Shown here one piece after another: positions 583-6,856 of a stretch of DNA of 9,188 nucleotides; position 1 is the stretch's first letter, and every line of letters starts with the position of its first letter. The position numbers and the translations under genes are program-made. The stretch lies in assembly GCA_027031765.1 (NCBI GenBank), contig JALVPN010000200.1:1-9188 (forward strand), written 5' to 3'. The notes under the pieces are model-generated. The model was not told where the DNA came from. It searched no databases and saw only the letters and a program-made list of their open reading frames with translations. The DNA comes from Promethearchaeota archaeon (GTDB lineage Archaea; Asgardarchaeota; Thorarchaeia; Thorarchaeales; Thorarchaeaceae).

Positions 583-838
583 CTCAGTAGCACCGGGGGC
601 GGTCACACGGCAGTGGCCCGGGTGGTCGTAGTGGGGGCACGGTCAGGACAGGCATGCCCCTGAGCATCACCGGTCACAGTATTATTGCATGCACTTGTCC
701 ATCCATTCGACAGCCAAGGGTCGCGGAGTGGGTCAACACCGCGTCACGTATACCCTTCATGTCGCATCCATGAACGGATGCTGTCTGCCCCATCCGGACG
801 GGTGGACAGCCTGTGTTGCCGGCTCGGTATCTCAATGC

Positions 839-844
839 TTAATA
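839..844 (+). promoter_or_regulatory. Candidate archaeal TATA box (TTAATA) for the longin-like gene
   Basis: AT-rich hexamer in a GC-rich context, about 28-37 nt upstream of the GTG starts at 872/881. Confidence 0.45.
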
Positions 845-880
845 GCGGCGTGAGGACTGGTGGGCAGTGGTGTGTTCTCA

Positions 881-1441
881 GTGACAAAGATCGAGTACCT
901 GATGGTCTACACTCATGGCGGCCTCCCTATCTACAGCAAATGTTTCGGACACTTCTGCCAGACCGCATTCAAGAACCCCGAGTTGTTGACCGGCCTACTT
1001 TCCGCCCTCGAGTCAATCCCTCCGACCCTTGGTGACGGCCTGTCTCTTGAAGCCGTGAAGATGGGCTACACGACAATGCGGTTCTCAAAGGTCATGCCCG
1101 GTGGTCAGTCCGTCGTGATCGGGCTGTCTGAGGACGACCTTGCCACGGCGGAGGCCGTGTTCAATGGTGTCAAGCAGCTGTTCGAGCTTGACAAGTTCAA
1201 AGACGTAGACTGGGGTTACGTCCGCCGTGATATCGTGGACGCGTTCACCCAGGAGCTGGTCGACAGGGTACTTGTGGACGTAATGCACGAGAGGGGTGGC
1301 TTCCACGACGAGTGCCCCTTGGGTGACATGTGCCCGATGCACACGCGGGCCGACACTGCGGACAGCCGTGGGATCTGGAGTATCATCCGGTCAAAGTATG
1401 ACGAGTTGCGGCGCAGGATGCGGGCAAAAATGGGGGAGTGA
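881..1441 (+). CDS. Longin-fold-like protein (Asgard eukaryotic-signature type) with C-terminal Cys/His extension, 186 aa; alternative GTG starts at 872 and 860
   Basis: Segment order fits the longin beta-beta-alpha-beta-beta-beta-alpha-alpha fold: IEYLMVYT-HGG-LPIYSKCF, NPELLTGLLSALESI, LEAVKM, TMRFSKV, SVVIGLS, LATAEAVFNGVKQLF, VDAFTQELVDRVL. The N-terminus resembles the 'I..l.I...gGl.iy.k.f' start of TRAPP/AP-sigma-type longins. GGTG at 869-872 could be an RBS for 881. Recognised by eye only. Confidence 0.72.
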   Translation: MTKIEYLMVYTHGGLPIYSKCFGHFCQTAFKNPELLTGLLSALESIPPTLGDGLSLEAVKMGYTTMRFSKVMPGGQSVVIGLSEDDLATAEAVFNGVKQLFELDKFKDVDWGYVRRDIVDAFTQELVDRVLVDVMHERGGFHDECPLGDMCPMHTRADTADSRGIWSIIRSKYDELRRRMRAKMGE

Positions 1442-1515: not shown

Positions 1516-3288
1516 TCAGAGCACCTCAAAGGCGACAATCCTGTACTCGTCGTCCATCTGCTGGAGCACGGCGTGGAAGCCGTCGCCAACACGTACAGAC
1601 AGCAGCTCGTACCAGTCATCAAGAGGCATCCACTCCCTCGTGCCCTCAATCCACTCGTACGTGGAGTTGTCTGTCCGGAGGACAATGTGGGTGTCACCCT
1701 CGTACACGTAGGAGCTGATATTGAGGACGGTTGCACTGAGCTCCACGGTACCTGTTGAGGGGTGGAGTGCATCCCTCACGGTCTGGACGTACCCCTCACG
1801 CACCTGTCTCACAAGGACCTCCCCCGTGACCGTGCCCCCACGTGTGAGCAGGTACTTTATCGTGGGGTCTTGCGCGTCGGCGATGGCGAAGGCGTGGAGC
1901 CGGATGTCAGTGATATAGTACTCTTCTGCGTCCGAGTCATAGTAGCCGTCGTACCAGTAGATTGGGCAGTACCATGCGTAGCGCATGACCCCCGGTGCTA
2001 TCTCGACCGGGTACAGCAGCGGCATGGCCCCAAAGTACGACCCGGAGGTCGGGTTCGGGAGCCCCTTTATGACCTCGTTGGTTGCAGCCTCACCGCTGAT
2101 CAGTGTTCCATTCGGAAAGGTGTGGAAGAATATCCCATCACGAGTGGCACGCATGATCCCGCTCAGGGTCAGGCTCGTTGACTCCGGTGGGTTCACCGCT
2201 ACAAGTGCCTCGACCCGCCCGTTGTCGGGGTTGATTATGTACCTCGTGTCCTCCGTCATCTCGAGCCTGTCCCTTGACGGCTGGACGACCCACAGGAAGC
2301 CCCCTGCGAACAGGTCGAAGCCGTCACCGCGTCTGTAGGCGCCCCACCTGTTGACCTGGCGTTCCAGCCACTCTTCACTGTAGACCTGTGAAACCCACGT
2401 TGGCGTTTCCTCTATGGTCGCATATCTCCTGACAGTGCCGTTCGAGCAGTATATCACCGGGCCCAGTGGCCGTTCCACCAGGTCCCAACCAATACTGGTC
2501 CTTGTCTGGATGTATACAAGGTTCCCCGCGGGGTCCCATGTCGGGTAGGCATACTCGTACAGCTCTGTCATGTCATTGAGGTAGTTCCTGAAGTGTATGT
2601 TCTGGTCCCAGAACAGGCCCTCCCCGGGCATCGTTGTCGGGATGTCCTCTATCACTTCTATCATCGCGGGGTCGTTCGCATCGACGACAACGAGGCTCTG
2701 GATGTAGTTCTCGGCCAGCACATTGGTGGAGACGACCACGCAGACCCAGACCAGCCGCCCATTCCGTGTCGTTATGTGGGTCGCGGCCACCTCGACATTG
2801 GAGCCTATCCCTGCAAAGTACTGTCTCGCAACAAAGGCCGCGTACTCGCCGGTGACCAGTCGTACCATGTTGTCTGGTATCGGACTGTTGAACAGTGGCT
2901 CGTCGGTCACCGTGATGAACGTGTCCACTGACTCGGCATTGGAGAGGCCTGATGTCCAGACAGCGATGCTCGTGAATGTCGGCAGTGTGACAATCATGAC
3001 CATTGCCACGCACATCACCGGGGTCTTGAAGTGCCTCAGGGAGGGTGGTCTCTTGCGTGGCATCCCGCTTATCAACAGCAGTACCATCCATCCATAGGCA
3101 AGCCCTACCACAGCCCACGGCAGTGTGGTCATTGTGGCCACAGTGGTCAGGGCCCAGACCAGCACCGCCCACAGCAACCTCAACGGCAACCAACGGATCA
3201 GCCGGCCAAAGCTCAGCATCCCGTCCTGATACGGGAACGGCATGCTGTACACGACAATGCAGACGAGGAGAAACAGTAGCATGTTCAA
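1516..3288 (-). CDS. Uncharacterised membrane-anchored protein, 590 aa: about 4 N-terminal TM helices and a large extracytoplasmic domain
   Basis: Long ORF with a TTG start 7 nt after GGAGG (3300..3296); an in-frame ATG at 3282 is an alternative. The first ~112 aa are hydrophobic, with a basic loop (PRKRPPSLRHFK) before the last TM. Four N-x-S/T sequons in the soluble part (NGT twice, NIS, NST). Confidence 0.88.
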   Translation of the reverse strand: MNMLLFLLVCIVVYSMPFPYQDGMLSFGRLIRWLPLRLLWAVLVWALTTVATMTTLPWAVVGLAYGWMVLLLISGMPRKRPPSLRHFKTPVMCVAMVMIVTLPTFTSIAVWTSGLSNAESVDTFITVTDEPLFNSPIPDNMVRLVTGEYAAFVARQYFAGIGSNVEVAATHITTRNGRLVWVCVVVSTNVLAENYIQSLVVVDANDPAMIEVIEDIPTTMPGEGLFWDQNIHFRNYLNDMTELYEYAYPTWDPAGNLVYIQTRTSIGWDLVERPLGPVIYCSNGTVRRYATIEETPTWVSQVYSEEWLERQVNRWGAYRRGDGFDLFAGGFLWVVQPSRDRLEMTEDTRYIINPDNGRVEALVAVNPPESTSLTLSGIMRATRDGIFFHTFPNGTLISGEAATNEVIKGLPNPTSGSYFGAMPLLYPVEIAPGVMRYAWYCPIYWYDGYYDSDAEEYYITDIRLHAFAIADAQDPTIKYLLTRGGTVTGEVLVRQVREGYVQTVRDALHPSTGTVELSATVLNISSYVYEGDTHIVLRTDNSTYEWIEGTREWMPLDDWYELLSVRVGDGFHAVLQQMDDEYRIVAFEVL

Positions 3289-3520: not shown

Positions 3521-4060
3521 TCAGTCGGTGCCCTCCTCTATGGCCTCCCAGTCCATGCCGCCGTCGGCAACGAACTTCTCGACTGCCCCGCCAGCTCTGA
3601 GGAGCCCCATCAGGAACGGTGGGAGCGGTTCGAACTCCAACGGTTCGCCCGTTTCCACGACGACCGCATACCCTTTCTCAGGGTGGACTTCAAGTTCTGC
3701 ACCCTCTGCCACCAGGGGTGCTGAGTAGTGCAGTGCAAAGGCCGGCAGGCCCACATTGATGGCGTTCCTGAAGAATATCCTTGAGAACGTCTCGGCGATG
3801 ACGCACGATATCCCGAGCTCACGGAGCACCATCGGGGCCTCCTCCCTCGAAGACCCGCTGCCGAAGTCCCGTCCTGCAAGGATGATGTCACCACGCCTGA
3901 CCTCGGACGCAAAGTCGGGTCTCAATGGCTCCATTGCGTGCCTTGCCATCTCCGAGTAGTCCAGTATTGTGAGGTAACGGCCGGGGATGATCTGGTCGGT
4001 GTCCACATTGTCACCGAAGAGCCAGACCCGGCCACGGAGCACATGCAGGTCCCTCATCAC
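3521..4060 (-). CDS. leuD: 3-isopropylmalate dehydratase / homoaconitase family small subunit (archaeal-type LeuD/HacB), 179 aa
   Basis: GRVWLFGDNVDTDQIIPGRYL, AGRDFGSGSSREEAP, VIAETFSRIFFRNAINVGLP. GTG start at 4060 overlaps the leuC stop (GTGA); ATG at 4057 is an alternative. GGAG RBS at 4070..4067. Family is secure, substrate is not. Confidence 0.92.
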   Translation of the reverse strand: MMRDLHVLRGRVWLFGDNVDTDQIIPGRYLTILDYSEMARHAMEPLRPDFASEVRRGDIILAGRDFGSGSSREEAPMVLRELGISCVIAETFSRIFFRNAINVGLPAFALHYSAPLVAEGAELEVHPEKGYAVVVETGEPLEFEPLPPFLMGLLRAGGAVEKFVADGGMDWEAIEEGTD

Positions 4061-5325
4061 ACCACACTCCTGGGGTCTGTTATCTTCCCTGTGACTGCGC
4101 TGGCGGCCACAGTCGCCGGCGATGCCAGGTACACCTGTGACTCCCTGTCCCCCATCCGTCCCCTGAAGTTCCGGTTGGAAGTGGAGATGCAGACCTCATT
4201 CCCGGCCAGCACGCCGAGGTGTCCACCCACGCAGGCACCACAGGTCGGGTTCGTGACCACAGCCCCAGCCTCTGTGAGGGCCTCGATGTAGCCGGCCCTG
4301 AGGGCCTCCAGATAGACCTCTCTGCTCGCTGGCGTGACGATGAACCGCACACTGCGGTGCACCCTGTGTCCCTCCATCACCTGCGCGGCAAGTGCTATGT
4401 CCTCGAGCCTGCCATTGGTACAGGAGCCGAGGAAGGCCTGGTCTATCCGTATCCCCTCGTAGACGGAGACCGGGCGCACGTTGGTGGGGAGGTATGGCCC
4501 CGCCACCATGGGCCCCAGCTCCTCCTCAGACAGGTCTATCCTCATCACCCTGTAGTACTCGGCGTCCTCGTCCGGCTCAACAGCGTCCCAGTCCGCCCCC
4601 GGGGCCCTCCGTTTGAGCCACTCCCGCACGGCATCGTTCACACCCATCATTGCCGTCTTTGCCCCCGCCTCCACGGACATGTTGCACGTGGTCATCCGGG
4701 AGGCCACGCTCATCCTGTCCACCAGCCCTCCGTGGAACTCCACCGCCATGTAGTTGGCCCCATCAGTACCGAGCTCTCCGATGACCCGCAGGATGAGGTC
4801 CTTGCTGGTCACCATCTCGGGGAACTCCCCCTCTATCTCAACACGGATGCTCTCTGGCACCCTGAACCAGCACTTGCCGGTGGCAATTATCACTGCGGAG
4901 TCAGTGGCCGCAAGACCCGTTGCAAAGGCATTGAACGCACCATACGTATTGGTATGGGAGTCACAGCCTACGATGAGCTCGCCAGGTCGTGCCAGCCCCG
5001 CCTCAGGTAGCACCTGATGGCATATCCCCTTTCCCACGTCAAAGAAGTGGGGGATGCCGTGTTCGCTGACAAACTGGCGGTTGCGGCGGTGGATCACTGC
5101 GCTCCTGATGTCCGGTGCCGGCGCCCAGTGGTCGTTGACGACAACAATGTCCTCCGGGTCCCAGACCCGCGTGACGCCCATCCTGTCGAGCAGTGGGATG
5201 ACACGGGAACCGAGCACCTCGTGCACCATCAGCCTGTCCACCCTCGCGACTATGAACTTGCCCGGACGGACAGTCCCCCGTACAACGTGGGACTCCAGGA
5301 CCTTCTCGGCCATCGTCTGTCCCAA
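4057..5325 (-). CDS. leuC: 3-isopropylmalate dehydratase / homoaconitase family large subunit (LeuC/HacA), 422 aa
   Basis: TTG start at 5325 gives the canonical MGQTMAEKVL N-terminus, 6 nt after GGGTGAT. Motifs DHWAP, GICHQV, GCDSHT, and the three [4Fe-4S] cysteines in FLGSCTNGR and PTCGACVG, plus STSNRNFRGRMG and YLASPA. The ORF-track extension to 5514 overlaps leuB and is rejected. Confidence 0.93.
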   Translation of the reverse strand: MGQTMAEKVLESHVVRGTVRPGKFIVARVDRLMVHEVLGSRVIPLLDRMGVTRVWDPEDIVVVNDHWAPAPDIRSAVIHRRNRQFVSEHGIPHFFDVGKGICHQVLPEAGLARPGELIVGCDSHTNTYGAFNAFATGLAATDSAVIIATGKCWFRVPESIRVEIEGEFPEMVTSKDLILRVIGELGTDGANYMAVEFHGGLVDRMSVASRMTTCNMSVEAGAKTAMMGVNDAVREWLKRRAPGADWDAVEPDEDAEYYRVMRIDLSEEELGPMVAGPYLPTNVRPVSVYEGIRIDQAFLGSCTNGRLEDIALAAQVMEGHRVHRSVRFIVTPASREVYLEALRAGYIEALTEAGAVVTNPTCGACVGGHLGVLAGNEVCISTSNRNFRGRMGDRESQVYLASPATVAASAVTGKITDPRSVV

Positions 5326-5332
5326 GACAGCA

Positions 5333-6490
5333 TCACCCTTCAACCAGCACTGACACCCTCTCCGCAATGGCACGACCAACAGCACTGGTGCTTGAGGGCT
5401 GTACTGCAGCCCACGGCCCCCTGCACAGGTCTGCAGTCCTGACCTGCCCTTCGCGGAGGACATCGGCCACTGCGCGTTCGACAGTTTCAGCAGCATCCCA
5501 GCATGACCTGTCACCGTGTCGGTCGCCCAGCCAGCGGAGCATCATTGATGTGGCGAGGACTGCGGCCACAGGGTTGGCGGTGCCCTGGCCGGCATGACGC
5601 GGTGCTGACCCATGGACTGGTTCGAATACACCATGCCCGTCCCCTATGTTGGCCGCGGGTGCCACACCCAGGCCGCCCTGTATGGCCGCACCAAGGTCTG
5701 TGATGATGTCACCAAAGGCGTTGGGGGCAACAACCACATCGTAGAACTGGGGCCTGCGCAGACACCACTGTGTCCATGCGTCGACGTATGCATAGTCCAC
5801 AGACACACCGGGGTACTCTCCTGCCACCTCGTCGAAGACCCGTCGGAAGAGCTGGCAGCCTGCGAGCAGGTTGCTCTTGTCAACACATGTCACGCGCCGG
5901 ACGCCGTCCAGTGGCGCACCGTTTCTCTCCATGCTCAGCCTGAACGCCTTTCTGATGACCCTCAGGGCCCCATGGCGGGTGATCACTCGCGTGTCTATTG
6001 CTATCTCCTCGACACCGCCCCTCTTCATTATCCCCCGTGTCGGTGTATATAGCCCCTCTGTGTTCTCCCTGACTATCACCATGTCGATGTCCTTGTGTGT
6101 GACCCCATAGAGCGGTGTTGGCACGCCCTCGAAGAGCCTTACTGGGCGGACGTTCGCGTAGAGGTCCAGGCCAAAACGGAGCCCGAGGACAATGTTATAC
6201 CCGGCAAGGTTCCCGTCCGGGAGGCGCACTGGCTGTCCGGACGCGTCCTCGGCACCCACAGCACCCAGGAGCACTGCGTCCGCCTGGCGCTTTGTGAACT
6301 CCTCCGCCTCCTCTGTCCACTCCTTTCCAGTCCTCACATAGTACTGGCCGCCACACTCGAACTCGTGCACCTGGAACTCTGCCCCCCGGAGTGCGTCCTG
6401 TGCAGCACGCAGCACACGCAGCGCCTCAGTCACGACCTCCGGGCCAATCCCGTCACCCGGGAGCACCGAGATGCGGTATGTCCTGGTCAC
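5333..6490 (-). CDS. leuB: Isocitrate/isopropylmalate (beta-decarboxylating) dehydrogenase family protein, LeuB-like, 385 aa
   Basis: LPGDGIGPEV, LRFGLDLYANVRP, VRENTEGLY, VDKSN, NAFGDIITD, FEPVHGSAP. GTG at 6490 lies 6 nt after GGTG (6500..6497); alternative starts at 6499 and 6496. Family is secure, substrate and cofactor are not. Confidence 0.9.
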   Translation of the reverse strand: MTRTYRISVLPGDGIGPEVVTEALRVLRAAQDALRGAEFQVHEFECGGQYYVRTGKEWTEEAEEFTKRQADAVLLGAVGAEDASGQPVRLPDGNLAGYNIVLGLRFGLDLYANVRPVRLFEGVPTPLYGVTHKDIDMVIVRENTEGLYTPTRGIMKRGGVEEIAIDTRVITRHGALRVIRKAFRLSMERNGAPLDGVRRVTCVDKSNLLAGCQLFRRVFDEVAGEYPGVSVDYAYVDAWTQWCLRRPQFYDVVVAPNAFGDIITDLGAAIQGGLGVAPAANIGDGHGVFEPVHGSAPRHAGQGTANPVAAVLATSMMLRWLGDRHGDRSCWDAAETVERAVADVLREGQVRTADLCRGPWAAVQPSSTSAVGRAIAERVSVLVEG

Positions 6491-6499
6491 CCGCACCAC

Positions 6500-6832
6500 C
6501 TAGTAGTTCCCAAGCCACCCGAGGTCATTCCCGTGGTCGTCGATGATACTCACCACTGTGTCTACCCGCTCGCCGTCGACGTACCGTGTCTTGCACCTGA
6601 TAGTGAACTCCCTCCCACACCTTTCACAGCGCACACGCCAGTCCTCGACCACAGGTTCCAGTCCGTGCCCCTGCAGCTCCTCCTCCGGTGTACGGGTCAC
6701 ACCGAGTAGGCTGAGTTCCTTCCCGTCACACGCGTATGTGCACTCCTTCAGTGGTATTGGCTCCATACCCCTCCTACCGAGGGGCACGAACACCTTGTCT
6801 GGTAGTTCATCAAGGCTCCTCTGTCCGTTCAC
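6500..6832 (-). CDS. Small hypothetical protein with putative zinc-ribbon (C-x3-C ... C-x2-C), 110 aa; alternative GTG starts at 6841 and 6850
   Basis: ORF fills the gap between leuB and the divergent promoter region, and its TAG stop overlaps the leuB RBS. AGGTG (6843..6839) lies 6 nt before GTG 6832. Contains CTYAC, CERC and one further Cys. Confidence 0.78.
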   Translation of the reverse strand: MNGQRSLDELPDKVFVPLGRRGMEPIPLKECTYACDGKELSLLGVTRTPEEELQGHGLEPVVEDWRVRCERCGREFTIRCKTRYVDGERVDTVVSIIDDHGNDLGWLGNY

Positions 6833-6856
6833 TGACCACACCTGTGGCACCTAGAC

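Follow-up and report, generated by a model that had tools for sequence, protein, structure and literature searches.

A single-domain Asgard longin protein with a putative metal-stapled tail, encoded by an accessory gene of Thorarchaeota

Introduction

Longin domains are central components of the regulators of eukaryotic membrane traffic, and reconstructions of how this machinery arose draw on their Asgard relatives. In Asgard archaea, 130 asCOGs of the Roadblock/LC7 superfamily, longins included, have been described, and most Thor metagenome-assembled genomes carry a family in which an NPRL2-like longin is followed by a small C-terminal domain (Liu et al. 2020, 10.1101/2020.10.19.343400). Asgard roadblock and longin genes are rarely found in operons with GTPases, and a Zn(Cys)4 site has been seen experimentally in Thor-TRAPPC3 (Tran et al. 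2024, PMC10933270). Almost no Asgard longin has a known partner or regulatory input. Here, we describe a longin-like protein encoded at positions 881-1441 of the forward strand of the Thorarchaeota contig JALVPN010000200.1 (C200), which is analysed over its entire length of 9,188 bp (hereafter, the window) and belongs to an assembly of 2.95 Mb that is 95% complete.

We read this protein as a cytosolic, single-domain Asgard longin with a metal-stapled tail, which would act in trans as an adaptor or regulator and whose accessory gene probably has its own promoter; for this reading as a whole we estimate a probability of about 0.6. An earlier note, made from the DNA letters of the window, had already called the protein a standalone longin. 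The peroxiredoxin fusions of the family and the conserved Cys/His site were not part of that claim, and the conservation of the cysteines is new here.

Results

Predicted fold and family

An AlphaFold2 (AF2) model of the window protein, built from 32 homologues, reached a predicted local distance difference test (pLDDT) score of 78 and a predicted template modelling (pTM) score of 0.75. Its elements, as assigned by DSSP, are two strands (residues 7-13 and 19-24), a helix (27-47), three strands (61-64, 67-73 and 80-85) and two helices (90-110 and 119-139). This order, beta-beta-alpha-beta-beta-beta-alpha-alpha without an N-terminal helix, is the longin order. The roadblock/LC7 order, alpha-beta-beta-alpha-beta-beta-beta with an N-terminal helix, was not found, as beta1 already starts at residue 7.

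Structure searches with this model gave nearly unanimous results. In the Foldseek search against the Protein Data Bank (PDB), longin-domain proteins occupied all 50 rows listed, with a best E value of 3e-4, template modelling (TM) scores by target of 0.54-0.63 and an overall TM range of 0.43-0.63; the matches included AP sigma/mu, COPI zeta, TRAPP longin subunits, Sec22b, VAMP7, Ykt6, Mon1-Ccz1 and Fuzzy-Inturned. With VIA-align, run against 48,161 chains, the top matches were sedlin (Z 9.6, 133 residues aligned, root-mean-square deviation (rmsd) 3.6) and synbindin (Z 9.6), followed by Sec22 (8.8), VAMP7 (8.5) and Fuzzy (8.4), and then by the SRX domain and AP sigma (7.9), and the longin matches spanned model residues 1-143. 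Roadblock proteins stayed at or below 5.6 (MglC 5.6, MP1-p14 4.8), at least 3 Z units under the longins, and GATOR1/SEA chains reached only 5.4. In the ESM Atlas, the shape search placed a Sybindin cluster first (TM 0.53/0.67), and the feature search led to Asgard clusters, one of them with 22% Fuz_longin_1.

The homologues point in the same direction. A word-indexed search of 5.8 billion proteins returned 62 homologues of 175-214 amino acids (aa) with 44-65% identity, the closest relative outside the source genome having an E value of 5e-69. All of them are annotated as hypothetical protein, and those with a named source are all Asgard, mostly Thorarchaeota. With HMMER, 58 matches were obtained when 1.84 billion cluster representatives were searched exhaustively, and these extended the family to 25-35% identity; two giant repetitive proteins (4710 and 3325 aa) in this list are spurious repeat matches. 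The window gene is thus real, and it is conserved far beyond chance. Among 29 distant family members, 16 matched PF19036 Fuz_longin_1 by sequence (best E 1.5e-6), and three relatives carry precomputed weak matches to the same family. By these profile matches, the subfamily is nearest to the FUZ/MON1/HPS1 first-longin family. No match to Sedlin_N (PF04628) or Sybindin (PF04099) of Pfam was obtained at E <= 0.1 with the window protein and 29 relatives, and the likeness to these two families is structural only.

The predicted fold is accordingly that of a longin and not of a roadblock protein. Roadblock, longin and profilin folds have a common core (PMC10933270), and the modest Foldseek values, together with the lack of a direct Pfam match for the window protein, would fit a protein of the roadblock/MglB or profilin-like type, or else an unrelated alpha/beta sandwich to which AlphaFold has given a longin-like shape. 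However, the order of the elements, the distance in Z between longins and roadblocks and the sequence matches of the relatives to Fuz_longin_1 all speak for a true longin, and we consider such a misassignment highly improbable. The two checks that the earlier note had named beforehand as deciding, a structure search and a homologue search, both favour an Asgard longin, as do the Fuz_longin_1 matches of the distant members. Its call of an Asgard source also holds, with the best sequence relatives among Thorarchaeota, Lokiarchaeota and Heimdall/Hodarchaeota proteins and with a conserved gene order of 13 kb shared with Thorarchaeota assemblies.

Gene and features

The open reading frame spans 860-1441 of the forward strand and would give 193 aa if begun at the GTG at 860. 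The N-termini of the orthologues uniformly read M-[T/P/V]-[K/I/R]-[L/I]-E-Y(-L), and their counterpart in the window is MTKIEY at the GTG at 881. Because these N-termini are shared, the start was placed at 881, which gives a product of 186 aa and agrees with the gene boundaries proposed in the earlier note. The two motifs that it had pointed out are also present, GGLPIYSK at 917-940 and LLTGLLSAL at 983-1009, and mark the regions of strongest conservation in the family; G17, P19, C24, C29 and L43 are invariant or close to it. The features are as follows.

838..845, forward strand: TATA-like A/T-rich box CTTAATAG, 36-43 nucleotides (nt) ahead of the start codon (putative, from sequence reading)

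868..871, forward strand: GGTG, Shine-Dalgarno-like, 9 nt ahead of the GTG at 881 (putative, from sequence reading)

881..1441, forward strand: coding sequence of the longin-like protein, 186 aa plus stop, start GTG (orthologue N-termini, 62 homologues)

890..1288, forward strand: predicted longin domain, beta1-beta2-alpha1-beta3-beta4-beta5-alpha2-alpha3, model residues 7-139 (AF2, Foldseek, VIA-align, Sybindin match in the Atlas)

941..958, forward strand: first cysteine pair, C-x4-C, end of beta2 and start of alpha1 (TGT 941-943, TGC 956-958)

1289..1372, forward strand: loop after alpha3, D-x-C-P-L-G-D-x-C-P-x-H (TGC 1313-1315, TGC 1331-1333, CAC 1340-1342; pLDDT 60-84)

1373..1432, forward strand: predicted basic amphipathic C-terminal helix with a near-invariant Trp (AF2 model residues 168-187)

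Cysteine site and C-terminal tail

The window protein holds exactly four cysteines, which form two pairs. The first lies in S-K-C-x4-C at the junction of beta2 and alpha1, and the second in D-x-C-P-L-G-D-x-C-P-x-H in the loop after alpha3. Across 98 family members, the four columns contain Cys in 95, 94, 84 and 93 proteins, and the last Cys, C154, is the sole invariant column in the alignment of distant members at 22% mean identity. In the same alignment, relatives without the third Cys mostly have His at or beside that position. The pairs are also kept or lost together: both are retained in 89 of 95 members, one of the 95 lacks both pairs and the tail, and one lacks one Cys from each pair. 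The other longin paralogues of the source genome share the core G-x-P-[IL]-[YF]-S ... L-x-S-A-L and have neither a Cys pair nor the tail. Because of the conservation of the cysteines, the exchange for His, the joint retention and loss and the absence from the paralogues, we infer a single Cys4/Cys3His metal site that would staple the tail to the domain. Four conserved Cys/His positions, a tolerated Cys-to-His change and joint gain and loss are the sequence marks of a zinc site, and the most likely metal is a structural zinc.

The cysteines might instead bind an iron-sulfur (Fe-S) cluster or heme, which would make the protein a sensor that carries a cofactor. Cys-Pro motifs can serve as ligands of Fe-S clusters or heme, as in ferredoxin-type and heme-regulatory motifs. 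In the window protein both tail cysteines precede a proline and a histidine follows three residues on (C-P-L-G-D-x-C-P-x-H); of the 98 members, 75 have Pro behind C154 and 55 have His157. The organism, known from a hydrothermal vent metagenome, is anaerobic. On the other hand, the C-x4-C ... C-x5-C spacing does not correspond to a canonical Fe-S signature, an exchange of one Cys for His is seen most typically in zinc sites, and distant members do not conserve His157 and Pro149. We therefore regard a cofactor of this kind as improbable and a zinc site as the better account of the four cysteines.

With the end of the longin core at about model residue 139-143 of 189, the tail comprises 46-50 residues; the earlier note was right that an extension follows the core and put it somewhat too long, at about 55 residues. 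After alpha3, a loop of 28 residues leads into a basic amphipathic helix of 20 residues with a hydrophobic moment of 0.50, in which W169 is found in 84 of 98 members. Some distant relatives extend past this helix with a hydrophobic/aromatic tail that is rich in Lys/Arg. A search for SNARE features found none, as the 46-50 residues after the domain consist of the Cys loop and the 20-residue helix, with no hydrophobic anchor.

These properties bear on another possibility, in which the tail folds onto the core as in the closed conformation of Ykt6 or VAMP7 and the amphipathic helix is freed to bind a membrane or a partner, giving the protein a SNARE- or tether-like role. Full-length Ykt6 (6j74_C) aligns to model residues 5-187, tail helix included, with Z 7.8, and the basic amphipathic helix, with its added hydrophobic/basic tail in several distant members, also speaks for such a role. 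The rmsd of this alignment is high (5.5), however, and the tail helix has about 20 residues against about 55-60 for a SNARE motif. In addition, a transmembrane segment or lipidation motif is missing, and the Thorarchaeota orthologues stop directly after the helix. Such a role is quite improbable in our judgement, and the stapled tail of a soluble longin remains our preferred interpretation.

Peroxiredoxin fusions and a possible redox role

Two representatives from a distant branch of the family have a longin followed by a C-terminal AhpC/TSA peroxiredoxin of the Bcp/PrxQ type (AhpC-TSA E 4.9e-38). Their full-length identity is only 34%, and they are collinear throughout, which indicates that the fusion is old and retained. 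There are 14 further fusion clusters, named as Heimdall-, Hod- or Promethearchaeota peroxiredoxins, and the Cys-Cys-His-Cys ligand set is retained in the fusions. Longer relatives of the window protein that carry a fusion were sought and none was found, which is weak evidence; the fusions were reached only through the exhaustive HMMER search. In a closed genome of 4.9 Mb (CP070695.1, L015:3886-9528), the fusion gene lies within an oxidative-stress cluster with rubrerythrin, nitroreductase, rubredoxin, a 182-aa longin paralogue, a thioredoxin-reductase-like protein and a second pyridine-nucleotide disulfide oxidoreductase, and a second genome (L036) has the same layout. Another fusion locus has a non-redox context.

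The fusions raise the possibility of a redox-switch longin, in which a redox-sensitive zinc-thiolate or dithiol centre is oxidised, the tail is freed and binding is altered, and in which the protein works with peroxiredoxin/thioredoxin beside or instead of GTPases. We rank this explanation second because the fusion is the only hint to function that domain architecture offers. The age and retention of the fusion, its further clusters in Heimdall/Hodarchaeota, the redox cluster repeated in two genomes and the conserved ligands in the fused proteins argue for it. Against it, the Thorarchaeota orthologues are unfused and have no adjoining redox genes, the second fusion locus lies outside a redox context, and the evidence is confined to one sub-branch; moreover, a structural zinc accounts equally well for the conservation of the cysteines. 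A redox switch is thus conceivable but unlikely as an explanation of the window protein.

Distribution of the gene

The longin gene is an accessory gene that is cleanly polymorphic for presence and absence at a junction of convergent genes. Of 43 genomes in the same family, 22 were found to have it, and in all four longin-less genomes examined the genes for the acyl-CoA dehydrogenase and for a 590-aa membrane protein, which otherwise flank it, abut with a gap of 50-277 nt. No gene remnant was found in the longin-less genomes by tblastn at E 10, and the gap holds only a GC hairpin. In one genome of the same family and in all other Asgard families, the longin stands in unrelated contexts. Because of this polymorphism, the neighbours are poor guides to the function of the longin, and the suggestion of the earlier note that the protein acts in trans or has another role is still the right reading. 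The idea that the longin is functionally coupled to either the 590-aa membrane protein or the leucine/homoaconitase-like operon was rejected, since longin-less genomes keep this block and other lineages carry the longin elsewhere. In the one genome of the same family in which the longin stands elsewhere, its convergent neighbour is a gene for a 601-aa TPR protein (L040:7924-9729, forward strand), whose best Pfam match is SNAP (soluble NSF attachment protein) with E 1.7e-15; this match is only a lead, as TPR models cross-match easily.

Upstream region

The distance from the dehydrogenase stop to the longin start is 40-151 nt in orthologues and 333 nt in the window. Most orthologues have upstream a hairpin, an A/T box 35-55 nt before the start and a GGAG/GGTG motif 6-12 nt before it. 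Together with the corresponding elements listed above for the window, this pattern makes a promoter of its own, which the earlier note had proposed, plausible for the longin gene. The GC-rich hairpin (G5-6 ... C5-6) follows the stop of the acyl-CoA dehydrogenase in genomes with and without the longin gene (L048:3283-3335, L049:3283-3335 and L050:760-809; in L031 upstream of the longin) and looks like a terminator common to the convergent genes.

Conserved gene block and Arf-like GTPase cluster

In eight Thorarchaeota loci, the gene order from the left is an Arf-like GTPase, proteins of 186 and 122 aa, a 465-aa coiled-coil protein, a 113-aa protein, a ChsH2-like OB-fold protein (followed by a 114-aa protein), the acyl-CoA dehydrogenase and the longin. 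Convergent with the longin are the genes for the 590-aa membrane protein, for LeuD-like, LeuC-like and isopropylmalate/homoisocitrate-dehydrogenase-like proteins and for a 109-aa protein, and a fumarylacetoacetate hydrolase gene with the opposite transcription comes next. One of the eight loci is without the genes for the 186-aa and coiled-coil proteins, and another is without the LeuD, LeuC and dehydrogenase genes. The window corresponds to the right-hand portion of this block.

No GTPase or roadblock gene was found in the window when all large open reading frames were searched against Pfam, as the earlier note had said. The short contig accounts for part of this, since a cluster with an Arf-like GTPase lies about 5 kb upstream. 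In the eight loci it lies 2.5-5 kb upstream of the longin. In the source genome, the cluster is split over two contigs (C91 and C34) and adjoins the window through an overlap in the acyl-CoA dehydrogenase. On the smaller one, C34 (2.2 kb; C34:1-2168), are the 113-aa gene, ChsH2 and the part of the dehydrogenase gene that encodes its first 250 residues and overlaps the left end of the window, and the orthologue of the Arf-like GTPase (82% identity) is at the end of C91 (C91:36539-37417). The linkage between the longin and this cluster is loose.

The Arf-like GTPase of the cluster has 293 aa with an uncharacterised N-terminal domain of 115 residues (relative locus L001:2191-5777). Its AF2 model, built from nine orthologues, has a pLDDT of 43.5 and is unusable for the N-terminal fold, and an Atlas feature search with the N-terminal part gave no usable match. 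The 465-aa coiled-coil protein has faint ATG16/crescentin-like matches.

Other features of the window

The 590-aa protein (1516-3288, reverse strand) combines several membrane helices at its N-terminus with a large outer domain and belongs to no Pfam or NCBIfam family. It is 51-70% identical in all Thorarchaeota loci examined, where its gene is convergent with the acyl-CoA dehydrogenase or, where present, the longin, and by language-model features it is similar to Bacillota clusters of 560-577 aa that carry the automatic names CvpA family or cell shape-determining protein. The operon at 3521-6499 (reverse strand) contains the isopropylmalate/homoisocitrate-dehydrogenase-like, LeuC/HacA-like and LeuD/HacB-like genes. 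It scores under the equivalog cut-offs, and its substrate would be isopropylmalate or homoaconitate. Against orthologues of 420-421 aa, the listed LeuC frame of 485 aa has about 65 surplus residues at its N-terminus. A 116-aa protein (6500-6850, reverse strand) with zinc-ribbon-like C-x3-C and C-x2-C...C motifs and no family heads this operon in all syntenic Thorarchaeota loci (56-59% identity). The window has a G+C content of 58-64% versus 41-57% in the syntenic loci of other Thorarchaeota, and the genome stands at the high end of the group. The only DNA run that carries the window stretch is a hydrothermal vent metagenome, in all likelihood the source sample.

Discussion

The observations above can be joined into a simple mechanism. 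The four cysteines would hold one Cys4 site (Cys3His in some relatives), most likely with a structural zinc, and this site would fasten the tail of 46-50 residues, ending in the basic amphipathic helix, onto the longin core. The protein could then be a small subunit with an adaptor or regulatory role, whose partner in trans would be another longin/roadblock protein or a small GTPase. The source genome offers several candidate partners, including the Arf-like GTPase cluster about 5 kb upstream. By analogy with solved longin proteins, we infer such a trans-acting adaptor or regulator role.

Several points weigh against this interpretation. First, the window protein has no match in Pfam (E <= 0.1) or NCBIfam, Fuz_longin_1 included, and PF19036 also left it unmatched in a six-frame search of the genome. 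Sequence and profile searches of solved structures gave chance-level matches only (interferon and coronavirus spike, E >= 0.07). Because a direct profile or structure match is missing, the membership of the window protein among longins relies on its predicted structure and on its relatives. The VIA-align Z values of 8-10 are also only slightly above the best-match background of 7-8 stated for the tool, and because they exceed it only modestly, the case for the fold relies on the nearly unanimous identity of the matches as longins. Second, the putative metal site is read from conservation, the proximity of the cysteines is presumed, and the model confidence in the tail loop is middling (pLDDT 60-84). 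The peroxiredoxin fusions, in turn, suggest a possible redox rather than purely structural role of the cysteines. Third, the partner is a postulated one, two metabolic genes lie between the GTPase cluster and the longin, and the cluster is not near the longin in other lineages. Two copies of the protein co-folded with two zinc ions scored 0.00 in a run without controls, which speaks neither for nor against dimerisation.

Metal or redox gating of the longin adaptor is possible. In its most elaborate form, a Zn(Cys)4/Cys3His site would hold an autoinhibitory tail, oxidation would free it and toggle the binding of a partner or membrane, and in Heimdall/Hodarchaeota the fused peroxiredoxin would relay the signal. 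We regard this as a speculative and rather doubtful extension. If true, such a gated longin would tie oxidative stress to eukaryote-like GTPase/longin regulation in Asgard archaea.

The probable metal site and the natural fusion to peroxiredoxin are testable handles on the control of archaeal longins. We give the finding moderate weight, as the protein is one more member of a large catalogued class, its role is a postulated one, and the gene is dispensable in half of its family.

Comparison with known systems

A literature search of incomplete coverage found no description of this subfamily, of a Cys or metal site in a longin or of a longin-peroxiredoxin fusion. Among curated families, PF19036, the first longin of FUZ, MON1 and HPS1 (tri-longin subunits of Rab GEFs), is the only one matched by the sequences of the relatives. 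Both families have the G-x-P-[IL]-[YF]-S motif in beta2 and the L-S-G-F-L-S-A motif in alpha1, and Fuzzy (7q3d_C, Z 8.4) and Mon1/Ccz1 (Z 6.1-7.3) are among the structural matches. The window protein differs in being a single longin of 186 aa, in contrast to tri-longin proteins of 400-600 aa, and in its Cys-bearing tail, which FUZ, MON1 and HPS1 are not known to have.

The best structural matches are the TRAPP subunits sedlin/TRAPPC2 (2j3w_A) and synbindin/TRAPPC4 (2zmv_A), with 120-133 residues aligned at an rmsd of 3.0-3.6. These proteins are likewise single-domain and of similar size, but the identity is only 9-12%, they are without the Cys4 site and the tail, and no Bet3/TRAPPC3-like gene was seen adjoining the window gene. 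The R-SNARE longins Sec22b, VAMP7 and Ykt6 are alike in fold (Z 8.8, 8.5 and 7.8), and the proposed fold-back of the tail resembles their closed conformations, whereas a SNARE motif, a membrane anchor and a lipidation motif are absent from the window protein.

Within the Asgard archaea, the Lokiarchaeota Roadblock-Longin structure 8yqg belongs to the same phylum and superfamily (8yqg_B, Z 6.4 to the window model in VIA-align). The window subfamily may or may not be equivalent to the NPRL2-like family of Liu et al. NPR2 (PF06218) of Pfam was matched neither by the protein nor by the source genome, and the control genomes were likewise without a match. Thor-TRAPPC3 provides a precedent for Zn(Cys)4 in a Thorarchaeota fold of the trafficking type, with the differences that it has the Bet3/V4R fold and that the site proposed here is a putative one. 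Asgard longins as such are already well documented, and the tail, which is probably metal-stapled, is the unusual feature of this subfamily.

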